Assembly (NCBI GenBank): GCA_031417915.1
Contig: JANOWN010000028.1
Coordinates: 26,936-90,935 of the forward strand
Origin: Methylotenera sp.
GTDB lineage: Bacteria; Pseudomonadota; Gammaproteobacteria; Burkholderiales; Methylophilaceae
DNA: 64,000 nt
Direction: 5' to 3'
Positions 10,327-60,595 of this stretch are shown piece after piece (within the stretch, counting starts at the first letter, position 1; every line of letters begins with the position of its first letter). The notes beneath the pieces were generated by a model. That model made no database searches and was not told where the DNA came from. It saw nothing but the letters and a program-made list of their open reading frames with translations. The translations under genes and the position numbers were made by a program.

Positions 10327-10520
10327 TGCTGCATAACCTCGTTAATGTTCGAATTAATATTATACAAATAATAGTTATTTGTCAATAACTTAGCGCCTAT
10401 ATATAAAATAAGTATTAAGATTTATATTTTGTGACATTTTTGATACAAGCACTTATATTCTTACATACGACGTCACTTTATGCGAAAATGTGCCGAACCT
10501 AATTGACCATACTACTTGCT

Positions 10521-10907
10521 ATGAAATTCCCTGAACAATTACTTTATACAGATGAGCATTTATGGGTGCTCCAGGATCCGCATGGATATTGGCTTGCAGG
10601 CATTACCGATTATGCCCAAGATTTGCTTGGTGACATTGTTTTTATCGAGCCACCAAAGCTTGGCGACAAACTAGTGAATGGCAAACCGTGTGGTATTGTG
10701 GAATCGGTGAAAACGGGCTCGGATCTGCATGCGCCTATGAATGGCGTTGTGACGGAAATTAATGAGGATTTATTGAACGCGCCTGAAGGTATTAACGATA
10801 AGCCTTATGCCGCGTGGATATTTAAGTTTAAGACTGATGATGCGCATGAAACAAAGCACTTTTTAAGCGCTACAGCTTACAAAAAACTAGTCGATGACAG
10901 CTTTTAA
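10521..10907 (+). CDS. gcvH: Glycine cleavage H protein / lipoyl carrier (standalone)
   Basis: GITDYAQDLLGDIVFI and VESVK (lipoyl Lys); ATG 10521 preferred over the ORF-finder start. Confidence 0.93.
   Translation: MKFPEQLLYTDEHLWVLQDPHGYWLAGITDYAQDLLGDIVFIEPPKLGDKLVNGKPCGIVESVKTGSDLHAPMNGVVTEINEDLLNAPEGINDKPYAAWIFKFKTDDAHETKHFLSATAYKKLVDDSF
10569..10602 (-). repeat. Intragenic copy of the AATATCCATGC-loop motif in gcvH
   Basis: Reverse complement of 10578-10601 is identical over 24 bp to 43797-43820. Confidence 0.8.
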
Positions 10908-10912
10908 GTAAT

Positions 10913-12148
10913 TTACTTAGGCAACACAAACTTCACTTTAAGCAATAAATCTTGTAGTTCAGACGTTAATTGATTGCGCAAATCGAGCTCTAAGCTTGGC
11001 AGCGATGTGGCCAATATTTGTTGAATATTCTCACGCATCACCTCTTGCACGGCAGGCAAATCGGCGTTAATGGTGGTTAAAAAATCATCGCGCAAATGTA
11101 GGCTTTGAACTGTCATTTCATCCGCAAATTTACCTTTCACATCATCCACCGCAGCCGCATATATGCTAGGGATGGCGTCATTAAAGGTAGTGCCCATTTG
11201 TGACAAAATATCCGCCTGTAGCAAGTTCATTTGCTGCGCCAACTCTTGCTTGGCAGTTTGATTTAATGTCTGATAATTCTCTGCCAGCGCCTCGCTCAAT
11301 TGCGCCTGGTTCTCACTCAGTGCTTGTGCTTGAAACGCCCGCATCTCTTGGCTTAGACTTTCGCCAATTTGGGCTGTAATCGTCTCTTGCTGCTCGGCCA
11401 CTGCGGAGGTATAAATAGACGGCATTGCCTCGTTAAACGTGGCGCGCATTTGTGTCAGCGCTTCGGCCTGCATCGCAGCCAATTGTTGTTGCAGATCAGT
11501 TTTTGCGCTTTGACTGATTGAATGAAAAATAGTATTCAGCTCTTCACCCAAAAGCGCCTGATGATTGCCTAAAGATTGTGCTTGAAAGGTGAGCATTTCT
11601 TGATTTAATTCATGCGCAATGCGTGTGCTGATATCTGTTTTCAGCGCCTCTACATGCGCGCCAATCTCTGCGCTAGCGGCTTGCGCTGAGGTTTGCATCG
11701 CATCAGAAATCGTCGCATCAAATTTCGAAATCGCATCCGTTTGTAAGGCAGAAATACTCTCCGAAAGATTATTTAGCACCAAATCTGCACTGGCTTGATA
11801 CATACGGGGCAAGTCCGTTTTCAGGTCGGCCTTAGTTCTATCGACAAAATCAACCGTTCTAGATTCAATCGCCGCTTGCGTGGTCACTATTTCATCCTGC
11901 AGCGCTTGAATTAAATCTTTTTTAAGCGCGTCACGCACTCTTTCTGTCACCGTCTTGGTAATATCAGCTTCTAATCTAGGCTTGATGTGTGAGGCAATGC
12001 GCGCAATTAATTCTGGCGTAATTAAAGTGGCATCATCCTGCCGAGGTTTTAAGTCAACCCAATCACTAGGCCTATATTCACTAGGTTTTGGCTCGCTGGC
12101 TTTTGGTTGATAAACATCGGTTAATAATGGTATTTTTTTATCTGCCAC
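10913..12148 (-). CDS. Hypothetical helical/coiled-coil protein with an internal 84-aa tandem repeat
   Basis: IPLLTDV N-terminal motif (DUF2486-like position after holC); Q/A/L/E-rich; two QEM...PSIY repeats. Confidence 0.8.
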   Translation of the reverse strand: MADKKIPLLTDVYQPKASEPKPSEYRPSDWVDLKPRQDDATLITPELIARIASHIKPRLEADITKTVTERVRDALKKDLIQALQDEIVTTQAAIESRTVDFVDRTKADLKTDLPRMYQASADLVLNNLSESISALQTDAISKFDATISDAMQTSAQAASAEIGAHVEALKTDISTRIAHELNQEMLTFQAQSLGNHQALLGEELNTIFHSISQSAKTDLQQQLAAMQAEALTQMRATFNEAMPSIYTSAVAEQQETITAQIGESLSQEMRAFQAQALSENQAQLSEALAENYQTLNQTAKQELAQQMNLLQADILSQMGTTFNDAIPSIYAAAVDDVKGKFADEMTVQSLHLRDDFLTTINADLPAVQEVMRENIQQILATSLPSLELDLRNQLTSELQDLLLKVKFVLPK

Positions 12149-12173: not shown

Positions 12174-12617
12174 CTATTCAATCTTATTTTGCGCATGATC
12201 GATGCTCTTAATATCGTAACCTCTATCGCGATAAAACTTAAAGCGCGCGCGCGCCGCTAGCTTGTCCTGCGCATTTTCGCCCACCAGCTCTACCAACTGC
12301 GTAAATCGACTAAAAAAACTAGGTTCATTTGCCGTTAAATTAATCAACATATCATCATGCATTAAATTATTTATTAAATCACTGCCCTGCAAGCCAATAA
12401 CCACGGGGGTTGCAGCGGCATGCAAATGATCTAATTGTACATTAGGCAAAAAACTTTCAGGCTTATTTTGCCACAAACTCGCACTCATATCACTCGCCAT
12501 TTGCTCATCCGCTGCCAAAAGCATGACTTGGCGACGCTTTAATAACGCCGATTGCACCAAACTTGCGATGGCTTGTTGCTTATCCGCTACGTTAAAATAA
12601 AATTCAATGCGCGTCAT
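12174..12617 (-). CDS. holC: DNA polymerase III chi subunit
   Basis: MTRIEFYFN, LW...SFLP, LINL and ARARFKFYRDRGY; follows pepA. Confidence 0.93.
   Translation of the reverse strand: MTRIEFYFNVADKQQAIASLVQSALLKRRQVMLLAADEQMASDMSASLWQNKPESFLPNVQLDHLHAAATPVVIGLQGSDLINNLMHDDMLINLTANEPSFFSRFTQLVELVGENAQDKLAARARFKFYRDRGYDIKSIDHAQNKIE
12383..12421 (+). repeat. Intragenic copy of the AATATCCATGC-loop hairpin in holC
   Basis: TGCCCTGCAAGCC-AATAACCACGG-GGGTTGCAGCGGCAT; both arms retained. Confidence 0.85.
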
Positions 12618-14101
12618 TATTTACTATTGGAGCGATTCACTAAAAATGTGGTCAATAACGGAACAGGTCGTCCCGTCCCGCCTTTTTCTTTGCCACTTTT
12701 CCAAGCTGTACCTGCAATATCCAAATGCGCCCAATCATATTTTTTGGTAAATCGCGACAAAAAACACGCCGCGGTAATACTGCCTCCAGCACGCCCGCCT
12801 ATATTGGCCATATCGGCAAAGTTGCTATCCAGCTGGCTTTGAAATTCTTCCCACAAAGGCATGTGCCAAGCGCGATCATGCGATTTCTCGCCTGCGGCTA
12901 ATAACTCATACGCCAGCGCATCTTTATTGCTAAACAAGCCGCTTGGATGATGCCCAAGCGCGATGACGCACGCGCCTGTCAGCGTAGCGATATCTACCAC
13001 CGCACTCGGCTCAAATCTTTCAGCATAGGTCAGCGCATCGCATAAAATCAAGCGGCCTTCGGCGTCAGTATTTAAAACCTCAATGGTTTGGCCAGACATA
13101 CTCGTTAAAATATCGCCTGGTTTAATCGCGCCCGCATCTGGCATATTCTCGCAAGTGGCGATTAAACCAATCGCATTAATGGCCAAATTCATTTCGCCGA
13201 TCGCCTTGAAAGTGCCTAAAACACTGGCTGCGCCGCACATATCATATTTCATTTCGTCCATGTCGCCGCCAGGTTTTAGCGAAATACCGCCCGTATCGAA
13301 CGTGATGCCTTTGCCCACCAGCACGGTCGGTTTGGCACCTTTTTTGCCTTTTAAATGCTGCAAAATAATAAAGCGTGGTGGTTCCACACTGCCTTGTGCA
13401 ACGCCCAAAAACGAACCCATGCCGAGTTTTTCGATTTCATTTTTCTCTAACACTTCGACCTTAAAGCCGTAAGCTTTAGCGAGTTTTTTAGCTTGTTCGC
13501 CCAAATAAGTTGGCGTGCAAATATTCGGCGGCAAATTGCCTAAGTCTTTGGCTAGGCTTACGCCAGCACTAATCGCCAAGCCATGTTTTACGCCTGCTTC
13601 AGCTTGTGCTGTTTCAGATTTTTCAATACAAATCGCCAATTTAGTTAAGGCTTTTGGCTCGGCCTTTTTAAGTTTTATCGCGTTCACTTGATAAGTCGCA
13701 TCCATCACCACTTCGACCAATTGCGCGACTTTAGTGTGGATATCCGATTTCTTAATGGCAATTTCTGCCAAGCAAAAAATTGCGCTAGCAACACCTTTTG
13801 GCAATGCTTTAACGGCAGCCCGCACCGCTTGGCGATAATTTTTCTCTGTAAATTCTGCTTGCTTGCCCAAGCCCACCAATAAAACACGCGTGGCGGCAAC
13901 GCCCGCCACATTGTGTAGCGCCAAAGTGGCGTTTAGTTTGCCGTCCATATCACCGCTTTTTAATACCGCGCTAATCGCCTTATTAGAGGCGGCATCTAAA
14001 CTTTTTGCAGCATCAGTTGCCTTACTGCCTTCAAATATGCCTACAATCACACAATCGGTGCGTTGTTTTTCAGGATTTCCGTTTATTATGCTAAATTCCA
14101 T
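12617..14101 (-). CDS. pepA: Leucyl aminopeptidase (M17)
   Basis: GKGITFDTGGISLKP, MKYDMCGAA and NTDAEGRL motifs. Confidence 0.97.
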   Translation of the reverse strand: MEFSIINGNPEKQRTDCVIVGIFEGSKATDAAKSLDAASNKAISAVLKSGDMDGKLNATLALHNVAGVAATRVLLVGLGKQAEFTEKNYRQAVRAAVKALPKGVASAIFCLAEIAIKKSDIHTKVAQLVEVVMDATYQVNAIKLKKAEPKALTKLAICIEKSETAQAEAGVKHGLAISAGVSLAKDLGNLPPNICTPTYLGEQAKKLAKAYGFKVEVLEKNEIEKLGMGSFLGVAQGSVEPPRFIILQHLKGKKGAKPTVLVGKGITFDTGGISLKPGGDMDEMKYDMCGAASVLGTFKAIGEMNLAINAIGLIATCENMPDAGAIKPGDILTSMSGQTIEVLNTDAEGRLILCDALTYAERFEPSAVVDIATLTGACVIALGHHPSGLFSNKDALAYELLAAGEKSHDRAWHMPLWEEFQSQLDSNFADMANIGGRAGGSITAACFLSRFTKKYDWAHLDIAGTAWKSGKEKGGTGRPVPLLTTFLVNRSNSK

Positions 14102-20458: not shown

Positions 20459-21864
20459 TGTTAATGGCACAGTTTAATTGCTTGGTAGTGGATGACGAAA
20501 CCGATATTCGTGAGCTAGTGGTATTGACGCTAGAGCGCATGGATATTAGGGCGGACAGTGCAGGCAACGTAGAAGAAGCCAAAGAAATGTTAAGCAAGCG
20601 CAGCTATAATTTGTGCCTCACCGATATGCGTTTGCCCGATGGTTTGGGCTTAGATTTAGTCGAGCATATTTCGGCCAATTACGCTGGCTTACCTGTGGCA
20701 GTTATTACCGCTTACGGCAGCGCTGAGAACGCCGTTTCTGCCTTAAAAGCAGGTGCGTTTGATTATTTAACCAAGCCGATTTCGCTTAAGCAGTTGCGGC
20801 CGTTGGTGGAATCTGCGCTTAAGCTTTCCAGCTCCGACGTGAAAGACACCCAAAATACCATTGATTTAATTGGCAGCTCGCCAGCCATCGATTACGTGCG
20901 CACCATGATAGAAAAGCTGGCGCGTAGCCAAGCGCCCGTTTACATCAGCGGCGAATCTGGCAGTGGTAAAGAACTTGCTGCGCGCCTAATTCACAGCAAC
21001 AGCTCGCGCCGTGATAAAGCTTTCATTGCAGTCAACTGCGGCGCGATACCAGAAAATTTGATGGAAAGTGAATTTTTTGGCTACAAAAAAGGGGCGTTCA
21101 CTGGCGCCGCGCAAGATACCATCGGCTTATTTCAAGCTGCCAATGGCGGAACACTTTTCTTAGACGAAGTCGCTGATTTGCCACTGGCGATGCAGGTCAA
21201 ATTATTGCGCGCGATTCAAGAGAAAAAAGTGCGCACGGTGGGTGGCACGGCGGAAGAAGCGGTGGATGCGCGCATTATTAGCGCGACGCACAAAAACCTG
21301 AGCACCTTAATGGCGCAAGGATTATTTAGGCAAGATTTATACTACCGCCTGAATGTGATTCAACTCAAAATGCCTGCATTAAGAGACAGGCCAGAAGATA
21401 TTCCTGAGCTCACGCAAAAGTTGTTGCAAAAACTCTGTCAGTCACAATCCATTGAGGTGCCCTTGCTGGAAGATAGTGCCAATAAGCTTATTTCTGAGCT
21501 GCATTTTGCTGGCAATGTGCGCGAGCTAGAAAACATGCTGGAACGTGCACTAGCCTTGTGTGATGGCAAAAAAATCGACGCGGATGATTTATTTATGGGC
21601 GAAGAAGTGACAGCCAGCGCACATAAAAATAAAAACGAGGGTGAAGAAAATCACTTTAACCCCAGCAAAACTTTAGAAATCGGTTTGCCAGAATATTTGG
21701 AAGATATCGAAAAGCGTGCGATTTTGAAGGCTCTAGAAAAAGCCAATAACAACAAAACAGCGGCGGCAAAATTGTTGGGCGTAAGTTTTAGAACGCTCAG
21801 ATATCGATTAACTAAGTTGGGTTTAGCTAAAGAAGATGAAGCGGATTTAGAAGAAGAAGACTAA
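20458..21864 (+). CDS. pilR: Sigma54-dependent response regulator PilR
   Basis: Receiver domain, GESGSGKE, GAFTGA, Fis-type HTH. Confidence 0.9.
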   Translation: MLMAQFNCLVVDDETDIRELVVLTLERMDIRADSAGNVEEAKEMLSKRSYNLCLTDMRLPDGLGLDLVEHISANYAGLPVAVITAYGSAENAVSALKAGAFDYLTKPISLKQLRPLVESALKLSSSDVKDTQNTIDLIGSSPAIDYVRTMIEKLARSQAPVYISGESGSGKELAARLIHSNSSRRDKAFIAVNCGAIPENLMESEFFGYKKGAFTGAAQDTIGLFQAANGGTLFLDEVADLPLAMQVKLLRAIQEKKVRTVGGTAEEAVDARIISATHKNLSTLMAQGLFRQDLYYRLNVIQLKMPALRDRPEDIPELTQKLLQKLCQSQSIEVPLLEDSANKLISELHFAGNVRELENMLERALALCDGKKIDADDLFMGEEVTASAHKNKNEGEENHFNPSKTLEIGLPEYLEDIEKRAILKALEKANNNKTAAAKLLGVSFRTLRYRLTKLGLAKEDEADLEEED

Positions 21865-21879
21865 AAATATTAAAAGCAG

Positions 21880-21913
21880 ATGCTCTGCAGACCAATATCC
21901 ATGCGGCCTGCAA
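21880..21913 (+). repeat. Intergenic AATATCCATGC-loop hairpin
   Basis: ATGCTCTGCAGACC-AATATCCATGC-GGCCTGCAAG between convergent genes. Confidence 0.85.
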
Positions 21914-21918
21914 GTCTG

Positions 21919-27841: not shown

Positions 27842-27880
27842 ATGCTCTGCGAGACAATATCCATGCGGTCTGCAGGGCAT
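27842..27880 (+). repeat. Intergenic AATATCCATGC-loop hairpin
   Basis: ATGCTCTGCGAGAC-AATATCCATGC-GGTCTGCAGGGCAT between convergent genes. Confidence 0.88.
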
Positions 27881-29252: not shown

Positions 29253-30686
29253 TTACTCTTTGGCAACTTTTGGTTTCACTGTTTTAGGTTTAACCGTTTT
29301 TTCTTTCACAGTTTTAGGATTAACATCAGTCTCTGGTGATTCTCCAGCATCCGCATGGATATTGCCTTCCATGGCAGTTATTTTGGGCTTAATATTTGTT
29401 TTATCTGCTTCTACTTTACGCTCAAACACTGCCGCAAAAAAACCATCGGTACCGTGCAGATGCGGCAATAGTTTTAAATATTTTCCTGTATCCAGCTTGA
29501 TTTGTTGCTGTGCCAATATTTCACTTGCAGGCATCAACCTAAATTCAGGGTTTGCGCTTAAAAACGCTTCGGCAATCGCTTCATTTTCATCTTGCATCAA
29601 GCTACAAGTAGCGTAGATTAAGCGTCCGCCCGCTTTAGTGAGTTTGGCAGCACGCGCTAAAATTGCGGCTTGCTTCACGTTTAATTCGGCAATATCTTTT
29701 TCTTCAAACCGCCATTTTAAGTCAGGATTCCTGCGCAGCGTGCCAAAACCGCTACATGGCGCGTCGACCAACACGCGATCAAACTTGCCGTTTAAGCGTT
29801 TTAATTTTGGGTCAGTTTCACTGCTAATGACTTGCGCATGCAAGTTAGATAAACCCGAGCGTTTTAGACGTTTACCCAAATTCATTAAACGTTTTTCTGA
29901 CACATCAAACGCGTACAAACGGCCAGTGTTCTTCATCAATGCGCCGATTGCCAAGGTTTTTCCGCCCGCGCCTGCGCAAAAATCGGCCACCATTTGCCCA
30001 CGTTTGGGCGCGACTAAATAACTTAAAAGCTGACTGCCTTCATCTTGTACTTCGATTTTTCCTTCAGTAAACAATACATGCTTGCTAATGTTCATGCGCC
30101 CTGGCATGCGAATGCCGATTGGCGAATGCGGCGTAATTTCGATGGTGTTTTCGTTAGAAGTATTTTCTGCCAACATTCTTTTTAGCGTGTCTTCGCGATT
30201 GCCTTTGATGGTGTTGACGCGCAAATCCAAGCTCGCTTGCTCGTGCATGCTGCGGCAAATCGTCAGCGCTTCCGCCTCGCCATATTGCGCTACCAGCTTG
30301 TGCCACAGCCAATCGCGCACATCGGCCTGCACGGCCAAAGGCAGGTTTTCAGTCGATTTAGCTTTAATGGTGTGCGCCCACTCAGTTTGCTGCTCATTGA
30401 GCACCGATTCCATCTCGCGTATGCTTTTGCCCTGCACGCGCAACAACCACGCCAATATGAGCTTACGCGCATCATCTGGGTCATTTTCCTCATTTGCGGT
30501 AACGGTGCTTAAATAACGCAAACGGCGCAACACGCCATAGACGCTCTCGGCCACAAAAGCGCGATCCTTTGTACCTAAATCGCGATTATTGCGAAAAAAG
30601 TCGCTCAATTTTGCATCCGCTGGGCTATTAAAATCGAGTATATTGGCCAGCATCATTGCAGCTTGACGGATTAAATTTGGAGTCAT
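29253..30686 (-). CDS. RsmB/NOP family class I SAM-dependent RNA methyltransferase with Lys-rich C-terminal extension
   Basis: VQDEGSQ, DFCAGAGGKT, DAPCSG, YATCS and TDGFF motifs. Confidence 0.92.
   Translation of the reverse strand: MTPNLIRQAAMMLANILDFNSPADAKLSDFFRNNRDLGTKDRAFVAESVYGVLRRLRYLSTVTANEENDPDDARKLILAWLLRVQGKSIREMESVLNEQQTEWAHTIKAKSTENLPLAVQADVRDWLWHKLVAQYGEAEALTICRSMHEQASLDLRVNTIKGNREDTLKRMLAENTSNENTIEITPHSPIGIRMPGRMNISKHVLFTEGKIEVQDEGSQLLSYLVAPKRGQMVADFCAGAGGKTLAIGALMKNTGRLYAFDVSEKRLMNLGKRLKRSGLSNLHAQVISSETDPKLKRLNGKFDRVLVDAPCSGFGTLRRNPDLKWRFEEKDIAELNVKQAAILARAAKLTKAGGRLIYATCSLMQDENEAIAEAFLSANPEFRLMPASEILAQQQIKLDTGKYLKLLPHLHGTDGFFAAVFERKVEADKTNIKPKITAMEGNIHADAGESPETDVNPKTVKEKTVKPKTVKPKVAKE
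29342..29376 (-). repeat. Intragenic copy of the AATATCCATGC-loop motif in the RsmB-family gene
   Basis: TGCCATGGAAGGC-AATATCCATGC-GGATGCTGGAG; 31/35 identical to the gcvH copy. Confidence 0.75.
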
Positions 30687-43793: not shown

Positions 43794-43832
43794 ATGGCCT
43801 GCAAGCCAATATCCATGCGGCTCTCAGGGCAT
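43794..43832 (+). repeat. Intergenic AATATCCATGC-loop hairpin
   Basis: ATGGCCTGCAAGCC-AATATCCATGC-GGCTCTCAGGGCAT between convergent genes. Confidence 0.88.
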
Positions 43833-52384: not shown

Positions 52385-52411
52385 GTCACCGAACTAAAGC
52401 TTTCCAGTGCA

Positions 52412-52447
52412 GGCCTGCGAACCAATATTCATGCGGGTTGCAGGCAT
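52412..52447 (+). repeat. Intergenic AATATCCATGC-loop hairpin
   Basis: GGCCTGCGAACC-AATATTCATGC-GGGTTGCAGGCAT between rpoN and hpf. Confidence 0.85.
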
Positions 52448-52613
52448 GGTGTTTTTAATGATTTAGAAAACATTTAAATAATTTACACAAATAGCCCACT
52501 TGGCTAGTTGCGCGCAATTGCCAAAGGTGTACACTAAAATTGTTTAAAAGGTTTTAGTTGATCAACCGATTTGGGCAAAAAACCTTTTGAACAATTTCAA
52601 TAAGGAGCAAGTC

Positions 52614-60552: not shown

Positions 60553-60595
60553 ATGCCCTGGGAGCCAATATCCATGCGGGAGGGGTTGCAGGGCA
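60553..60595 (+). repeat. Intergenic AATATCCATGC-loop hairpin with an insertion in the right arm
   Basis: ATGCCCTGGGAGCC-AATATCCATGC-GGGAGGGGTTGCAGGGCA between convergent genes. Confidence 0.85.

Follow-up and report, generated by a model that had tools for sequence, protein, structure and literature searches.

Within holC, the gene for the DNA polymerase III chi subunit, a 64,000-nt stretch of Methylotenera DNA (hereafter the window) carries a genuine member of a dispersed repeat family of about 39 nt, which was made in place and left the length of the gene unchanged. This copy (12383..12421, + strand) is typical of a process that runs through the genome and the genus, with no peculiarity of holC, and the force responsible, which has nothing to do with the function of holC, acts at the DNA level. 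Roughly speaking, the genic copies, about 170 in number, were made as in holC, at sites that already resembled the motif. We are highly confident of the family membership of the site, of its equal-length origin, of the direction of the changes, of the sparing of constrained codons and of the generality across genes and species.

Our explanation as a whole (in-place overwriting at equal length, a patch mechanism and a bias), to which we assign a probability of about 0.6, is that variants approaching the motif would be supplied partly by single point changes and partly by short patches taken from other family members. These patches would come about when ectopic single strands annealed at microhomology and were incorporated during replication, in a manner like short-patch double illegitimate recombination (hereafter SPDIR). 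Selection at the protein level would purge damaging variants, and a sequence-specific bias would then fix and maintain the motif, the best candidate being that DNA bearing the motif is preferentially taken up and recombined, as with the DUS/USS uptake sequences. Within this explanation we infer the patch mechanism and, still more so, what the bias is.

The repeat family and its range

The genome holding the window (G000) is a 2.07-Mb Methylotenera MAG with 45% GC and 92% completeness. The family consensus, ATGCCCTGCAAGCCAATATCCATGCGGGTTGCAGGGCAT, is built as ATGCCCTGCAAGCC-AATATCCATGC-GGGTTGCAGGGCAT and was derived, together with an HMM, from the 120 copies in which the 17-nt core (AGCCAATATCCATGCGG) has at most one mismatch. 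Exact matches to this core in the 2.07-Mb genome number 36; with <=1 mismatch there are 120 and with <=3 mismatches 333, about 5 of the last being estimated chance copies, and the family HMM returns 297 copies at E <= 0.01. ORFs of >=150 aa contain 168 of the 333 copies deep in their interior; another 89 can be called intergenic with clarity, and 76 near gene ends are ambiguous. Copy density is about 7 per 10 kb in intergenic DNA vs about 1 per 10 kb in genes. A reading made earlier from the letters of the window (the sequence-only reading) had spoken of an intergenic consensus: the consensus repeat is real but that label is wrong, about half of the copies being inside genes.

Overall, the motif occurs about once per 6 kb with a mean spacing of 5.2 kb, only marginally evener than random (CV 0.89 vs 0.98 +/- 0.05). 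Copies use both strands, and a Chi/KOPS-like polarity was rejected since motif orientation is unlinked to local GC skew. Genic copies show a strong frame bias: in 90/168 the motif strand encodes (D)ALQANIHA(G), and the next most frequent class (35 of 168), to which holC belongs, has ..RMDIGLQ.. on the opposite strand.

Roughly one intergenic copy in two has an A-run upstream and a T-run downstream and therefore looks like a bidirectional terminator. Intergenic stems contain 8.49 Watson-Crick pairs vs 8.34 +/- 0.14 when arms are taken from shuffled partners; pairing is thus no better within than between copies, which makes the sequence, rather than the structure, the conserved feature. Both arms are conserved toward the consensus and not toward each other. 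A structured RNA family was also considered and rejected, given that stems show no covariation beyond the consensus and that an Rfam scan of the window at gathering thresholds matched 0 families.

In addition to holC, the window contains a copy in gcvH (gene 10503-10907, +; copy 10566..10604, −), with 0 core mismatches, no indel and an occurrence common to many species, and another in the C-terminal tail of a 477-aa RsmB-like gene (29339..29377, −; peptide TAMEGNIHADAGE). The others are all on the + strand: intergenic copies at 21880..21918 (28.3 bits), 52410..52448 (30.7 bits), 43794..43832 (44.3 bits; exact core, then a T-run) and 60553..60595 (32.8 bits; exact core, with the right arm displaced by a 4-nt insertion), as well as one at a gene end or intergenic at 27842..27880 (37.6 bits).

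The family is restricted to one Methylotenera clade. Core counts (<=1 mismatch) are 120 in G000, 165 in SF2_5, 104 in G007, 78 in G013, 75 in OTE_8_57 and 13-50 in other Methylotenera species, an approximately tenfold difference among sister species (16-165). Five other genomes of the same genus (G021, G023, G001, G011 and G019), most of them near-complete, have 0 core copies, as do 16 other families of the order, and a reversed control pattern gave 0 matches in 41 genomes. Separately, one conserved protein of the repeat-free G023 natively codes DALQANIHAHYGV (66940-66962), in DNA that matches the consensus at 28/39 and scores 24 bits in a genome otherwise without the family; its orthologue in G000 is a 389-aa ORF (C7:56477). 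This site may be a chance pre-adapted one or an ancestral seed.

Origin of the holC copy and of copies in other genes

The 147-aa holC product (12174..12617, − strand) was identified by its DNA_pol3_chi domain (Pfam PF04364, 115 bits, residues 1-136) and by homology to E. coli chi structures (PDB 1em8 and 3sxu, E 9e-8). The gene overlaps the stop codon of the upstream pepA (12617..14101) by one base. Its downstream neighbour (10913-12148, −) is a long, repeat-rich ORF of 411 aa, rich in Q, A, E and L, which looks helical and has no Pfam match.

On the + strand, positions 12383-12421 read TGCCCTGCAAGCCAATAACCACGGGGGTTGCAGCGGCAT, in letter-for-letter agreement with the sequence quoted in the sequence-only reading, and divide into arm, loop and arm as TGCCCTGCAAGCC-AATAACCACGG-GGGTTGCAGCGGCAT. 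The usual reading of the motif thus lies on the + strand, antisense to holC, and the peptide encoded on the coding strand is HAAATPVVIGLQG. An nhmmer search with the family HMM gives the copy 28.0 bits (E 2.5e-6, with the entire 2.07-Mb genome as search space). We confirm the earlier count of three loop substitutions and one extra base relative to the consensus (T>A, T>C and C>G in the loop, plus an extra C in GCAGCGGCA), an identity of 35/38. The left arm TGCCCTGCAAGCC (12383..12395, +) codes G-L-Q-G on the holC strand and has replaced ancestral H-W-Q-D/E codons. In the loop AATAACCACGG (12396..12406, +; consensus AATATCCATGC) all three mismatches fall in conserved P-V-V codons of chi. The extra base belongs to the right arm GGGTTGCAGCGGCAT (12407..12421, +) and is explained by its outer part, GGCAT, which reuses older H-A codons in a register shifted by one base from the consensus. 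As single-stranded DNA the copy folds into a hairpin whose 12-bp stem has one bulge and one mismatch and whose loop is 11 nt long (dG -11.6 kcal/mol; z = -2.4 vs shuffles), so the arms do pair as had been proposed.

When 28 Methylotenera holC genes are aligned by codon, the motif columns are free of gaps, and the sequence of the E. coli chi structure, PRGGAPVEIAWPQ, aligns gap-free to HAAATPVVIGLQG; neither in these 28 genes nor in E. coli chi is there a clean in-frame insertion. The left arm substitutes one for one for the H-W-Q-D/E codons, and the T-P-V-V-I strand, onto which the motif had already been placed by the sequence-only reading as a conserved TPV segment, is present in all orthologues. 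A 12-nt 'arm insertion' in the holC clade was considered and rejected, as closer relatives show that the indel (GATTTAATAAAT) is a separate event downstream of the motif.

Orthologues in repeat-free genomes differ in these nucleotides: at the holC site, lineages outside the motif-bearing clade, together with the deep nodes, agree with the consensus at 17-23/38 bases (17-21 in species that lack the repeat) and give no HMM hit. The site reaches 31/38 (11-15 bits) in the sister species SF2_5, M. oryzisoli and OTE_8_57, and 26-29/38 (about 9-11 bits) in G010, G015, G004 and OTE_58_390. In a holC tree built without the motif columns, with ancestral changes placed by parsimony, consensus identity along the path from root to G000 runs through 18, 21, 23, 21, 19, 19, 31, 34, 34 and 35 of 38, the tree resting on a 440-nt gene and having one weakly supported node (0.34) on this path. 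Parsimony counts 23 changes toward the consensus, 6 away from it and 6 neutral from the root to G000. Thirteen of the motif changes fall on one branch of 0.046 substitutions per site, vs 1.8 expected (P 6e-8), and 12 of these 13 are consensus-ward; the terminal branch to G000 has 1 change vs 4.9 expected. G004 and OTE_58_390 have the partial motif yet are placed apart from the main motif-bearing clade, for which possible reasons are poor support in the tree (0.34), a gain in parallel or a between-species segment transfer.

The changes form two clusters, H-W-Q-D/E to G-L-Q-G and the S/K codons before T-P-V-V to A-A, to which synonymous sites are added, while the central T-P-V-V codons are unchanged. 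The replaced positions are ones at which chi can bear a change. An inserted copy would not give clustered arm changes, an untouched T-P-V-V and a right arm out of step. Gap-free columns, consensus-ward changes and spared T-P-V-V codons thus support the origin by substitution under protein constraint put forward in the sequence-only reading, with the addition that, given 13 changes on one short branch, part of this substitution may have been a copied short patch of equal length. Since the loop was left unconverted, a single patch is insufficient, and two or more patches, or later selection, would be needed. Codon-invariant positions at synonymous sites number 5/8 in the motif vs 46/89 in the rest of holC, a comparison of very few codons.

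Generality was assessed against G023, a complete genome free of the repeat, by aligning to it the protein stretch that surrounds each genic copy. The alignment is gap-free within the motif +/- 3 aa in 106 of the 151 spanning cases (70%), and at only 5/152 genic sites is the G000 protein longer by at least 9 aa. Amino-acid identity between the two genomes is 46% in motif windows vs 69% in control windows 25 aa away. At genic sites the orthologous DNA of G023 matches the consensus at 15.7/39 positions, to be compared with 25.8/39 for the G000 copies and 9.5 +/- 2.7 for random 39-mers. Taken together, the resemblance in G023 and the low identity of the motif windows indicate that copies arise at motif-like, change-tolerant sites. 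Copies per 10 kb amount to 0.46 in genes without a G023 homologue, 0.43 in the most conserved genes and 1.2-2.05 in moderately conserved core genes, 2.05 being the value at 50-70% identity.

Two genes illustrate the graded nature of the process. In fabD, the segment preceding HSLGEY is GGKQPSIFAG in repeat-free genomes vs GGLQANIHAG in repeat-bearing ones; the motif adjoins the HSLGEY active site, no indel occurs among 16 genomes, and intermediate forms are seen. In gcvH, the left arm of the repeat is native sequence, which the conserved W-L-A-G-I codons spell out in repeat-free genomes too, and the core was completed by a change from P-T-G-E to P-H-G-Y, again with no indel. The graded gcvH states found in many species include many single-codon intermediates, which fit point mutation better than one copied patch. 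Other hosts of copies, besides holC, are mutS, dnaX and a 1,111-aa helicase/nuclease-like ORF, and the ComEC ORF (871 aa) itself carries two (C53:19506-19541 and 21560-21590).

Length is not always preserved. Motif windows are longer in G000 in 21.7% of cases vs 8.6% of control windows (p 1.8e-4), and a tcdA/ThiF-like gene of 283 aa (contig C14 of G000, outside the window) holds two family copies of different histories. Its site 1 is a clean 21-nt insertion, GGCAATATCCATGCGGCTTCT, equal to the motif core, found in G000 alone among 17 genomes and directly preceded by an older, left-arm-like GAT-xxx-CTG-GGA. Its site 2 is a variable loop that passes stepwise from EASCEV to LQANIHAGAGD across species. 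The clean core insertion and the length excess together indicate that templated copying from existing copies does occur, and partial templated insertions make up a minority of the family. The burst in holC may likewise be templated, as in tcdA, but of equal length.

Candidate drivers, rival explanations and related systems

Preferential uptake, proposed here by analogy with DUS/USS, may be the bias that fixes the motif, at odds below even. Uptake-independent self-propagation by conversion is a contender for this role at the same odds, and a selected, putative binding site is unlikely to fill it. G000 has ComEC, DprA and a ComP_DUS-family pilin, but repeat-free relatives have competence genes and ComP_DUS-family pilins just as well, so that these do not discriminate. 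Motif length, low density, the tenfold copy-number spread and the clustered and templated events all count against a classical uptake signal, and any uptake signal known to us is far shorter and less information-rich than a 17-nt core in a 39-nt palindrome.

A repeat that propagates itself, with neither transposase nor uptake specificity, would dispense with such a signal: its copies, perhaps exposed as hairpins in single-stranded DNA, would donate short-patch ectopic conversions, growth would be autocatalytic and likeness among copies would be kept by repeated re-conversion. The 13 clustered changes on one short holC branch, the clean 21-nt core insertion beside an older similarity to the left arm and the excess of partial insertions at motif sites all favor it, as do targets that resembled the motif beforehand, the tenfold spread of copy number in sister species and arms conserved toward the consensus rather than each other. 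Self-propagation alone gives no account of fixed amino-acid-changing copies at about 170 coding sites, and it leaves unexplained both the long conservation of orthologous fabD and gcvH copies across species and the many single-step intermediates; SPDIR-type events are, moreover, rare in the one organism in which they were measured (bioRxiv 10.1101/2023.11.22.568220). We consider it possible but doubtful as a full alternative. Another rival takes the motif to be the binding or structural site of a chromosomal protein (a nucleoid, replication or termination factor), under ordinary selection at some hundreds of positions, with holC as an incidental host. This agrees with conservation in sequence instead of base pairing, with a spacing slightly evener than random and with the persistence of the holC motif once formed (1 change vs 4.9 expected). 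It is nonetheless improbable: a candidate protein was not found, tenfold differences in abundance and absence from relatives of the same genus are odd for a housekeeping function, and we know of no chromosomal site system with 300-400 copies of a 39-nt palindrome.

Rickettsia-type palindromic elements (RPEs) are 100-150 bp long and add a peptide segment by insertion. Insertion of such an element, or of a MITE, in frame into holC would accord with a length of 39 nt, a multiple of three, and with the minority of net insertions in the family. It can hardly be correct for holC, where the motif columns are gap-free in the 28 genus sequences and E. coli chi and the motif overlies a T-P-V-V-I strand found in all orthologues; across the genome, merely 5/152 genic sites are longer than in G023 by at least 9 aa. 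No more credible is a chance resemblance, or a hairpin unrelated to the family and selected for local holC regulation (mRNA stability or attenuation). The moderate stability of -11.6 kcal/mol speaks for it, against a genome-wide E of 2.5e-6, a fold z-score of only -2.4, changes directed to the family consensus and not merely to self-complementarity, and the same process in fabD, gcvH and about 150 other genes.

Our preferred explanation of overwriting in place under a sequence-specific bias finds its closest parallels in the uptake sequences, whose coding-region copies were characterized by their share in ORFs, frame bias, poorly conserved positions and absence from genes without homologues (Findlay & Redfield 2009, PMC2817400). 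Like the DUS of Neisseriaceae and the USS of Pasteurellaceae, the Methylotenera motif is clade-specific, over-represented on both strands and about half genic without indels; it likewise shows reading-frame bias, weakly conserved residues and scarcity in genes without homologues in relatives, and its intergenic copies form terminator-like hairpins. The resemblance suggested by the sequence-only reading therefore fits, as far as sequence statistics go, and in-gene copies written at unchanged protein length are otherwise familiar chiefly from these far shorter sequences. Differences are also clear: the 17-nt core lies in a 39-nt palindrome with a conserved asymmetric loop whereas DUS/USS cores have 9-12 nt, the density is about 1 per 6 kb rather than about 1 per kb, and some copies are clustered bursts or partial templated insertions.

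REP/REPIN elements share with this family an imperfect palindrome of 20-40 nt, hundreds of dispersed copies and an enrichment between genes, often near gene ends, but at least half of the Methylotenera copies are genic with length unchanged. The Y1 transposase PF01797 (RAYT) has no match in the repeat-rich G000, G013, G002 and G009, so a REP/RAYT system is not supported; in other genomes the presence of PF01797 does not track repeat counts. REP/RAYT was accordingly rejected, there being no RAYT gene and copies not being confined to extragenic DNA (168/333 deep in ORFs). With the RPEs the family shares palindromic repeats in protein-coding genes with the frame kept, whereas the holC copy and 70% of the genic copies overwrite codons and add nothing. 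The cyanobacterial HIP1 (GCGATCGC) is a hyper-abundant palindrome, genic and intergenic, kept by selection or bias and not by transposition (PMC5861425). Abundance inside and outside genes is common to both, but HIP1 is an 8-mer tied to DNA methyltransferases, while the Methylotenera motif is five times longer and its conserved centre is non-palindromic.

In SPDIR, ectopic single strands find microhomologies at which they anneal and enter during replication, which leads to clustered substitutions and microindels (bioRxiv 10.1101/2023.11.22.568220), products that the holC burst and the 21-nt tcdA insertion match. It could be a source of motif variants, but it is a rare laboratory mutational mechanism, not known to spread repeat families.

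In the literature searched, Methylophilaceae and Methylotenera were linked neither to uptake sequences nor to this 39-nt repeat, and to our knowledge a long palindromic repeat that colonizes genes by equal-length overwriting has not been described. We tentatively raise two readings, of which one or the other could hold, rather doubtfully. The family might be a transposase-free, insertion-free repeat that overwrites similar stretches by copied patches, housekeeping genes included, with protein-level selection deciding which bases may change. Or it might be a third independent DNA-uptake-signal system, a 39-nt palindromic one, which would be the first outside Neisseriaceae and Pasteurellaceae.

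A motif acting at the DNA level has altered the amino acids of about 170 proteins, among them chi, FabD (near-active-site residues), GcvH, MutS, Ddl and DHFR, and the proteome bears a measurable cost or constraint from it. If biased uptake is the driver, uptake-signal biology would extend to environmental methylotrophs, and the motif added to donor DNA would offer a handle for their genetic tractability. If templated short-patch copying is the driver, this would be a new mode of repeat spread and a natural case of clustered multi-nucleotide mutation. The graded series across Methylotenera species makes an unusually clean system in which to watch a long motif being written into genes.

Arm variants and flanking modules

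A right-arm variant, GGATCCTGGAGCA / GCTGCTGGCGATGC (..AGxGD..), recurs at 29339-29377 (−), at 10566-10604 (−) and in several other G000 copies, and supplants the hairpin-closing arm in many genic copies, which suggests a sub-family or a coding-compatible variant.

Several hairpin copies are also accompanied by other repeated sequences. One of these, CATTCCAGTGCAGGCC, flanks copies on either side and in either orientation (e.g., C40:50544, C47:14215, C51:71787, C15:24112 and C37:32499). Further flanking modules are TTTCGCATTCGACTTAGTGCTTTAGCACT (C65:7057, C5:25515, C8:2789, C34:16028 and C47:43524) and TTTCACGCATGAATAACCAGCTTTAGCTG (C42:12052, C27:12831 and C17:14109). Such flanking modules suggest larger composite repeat units.
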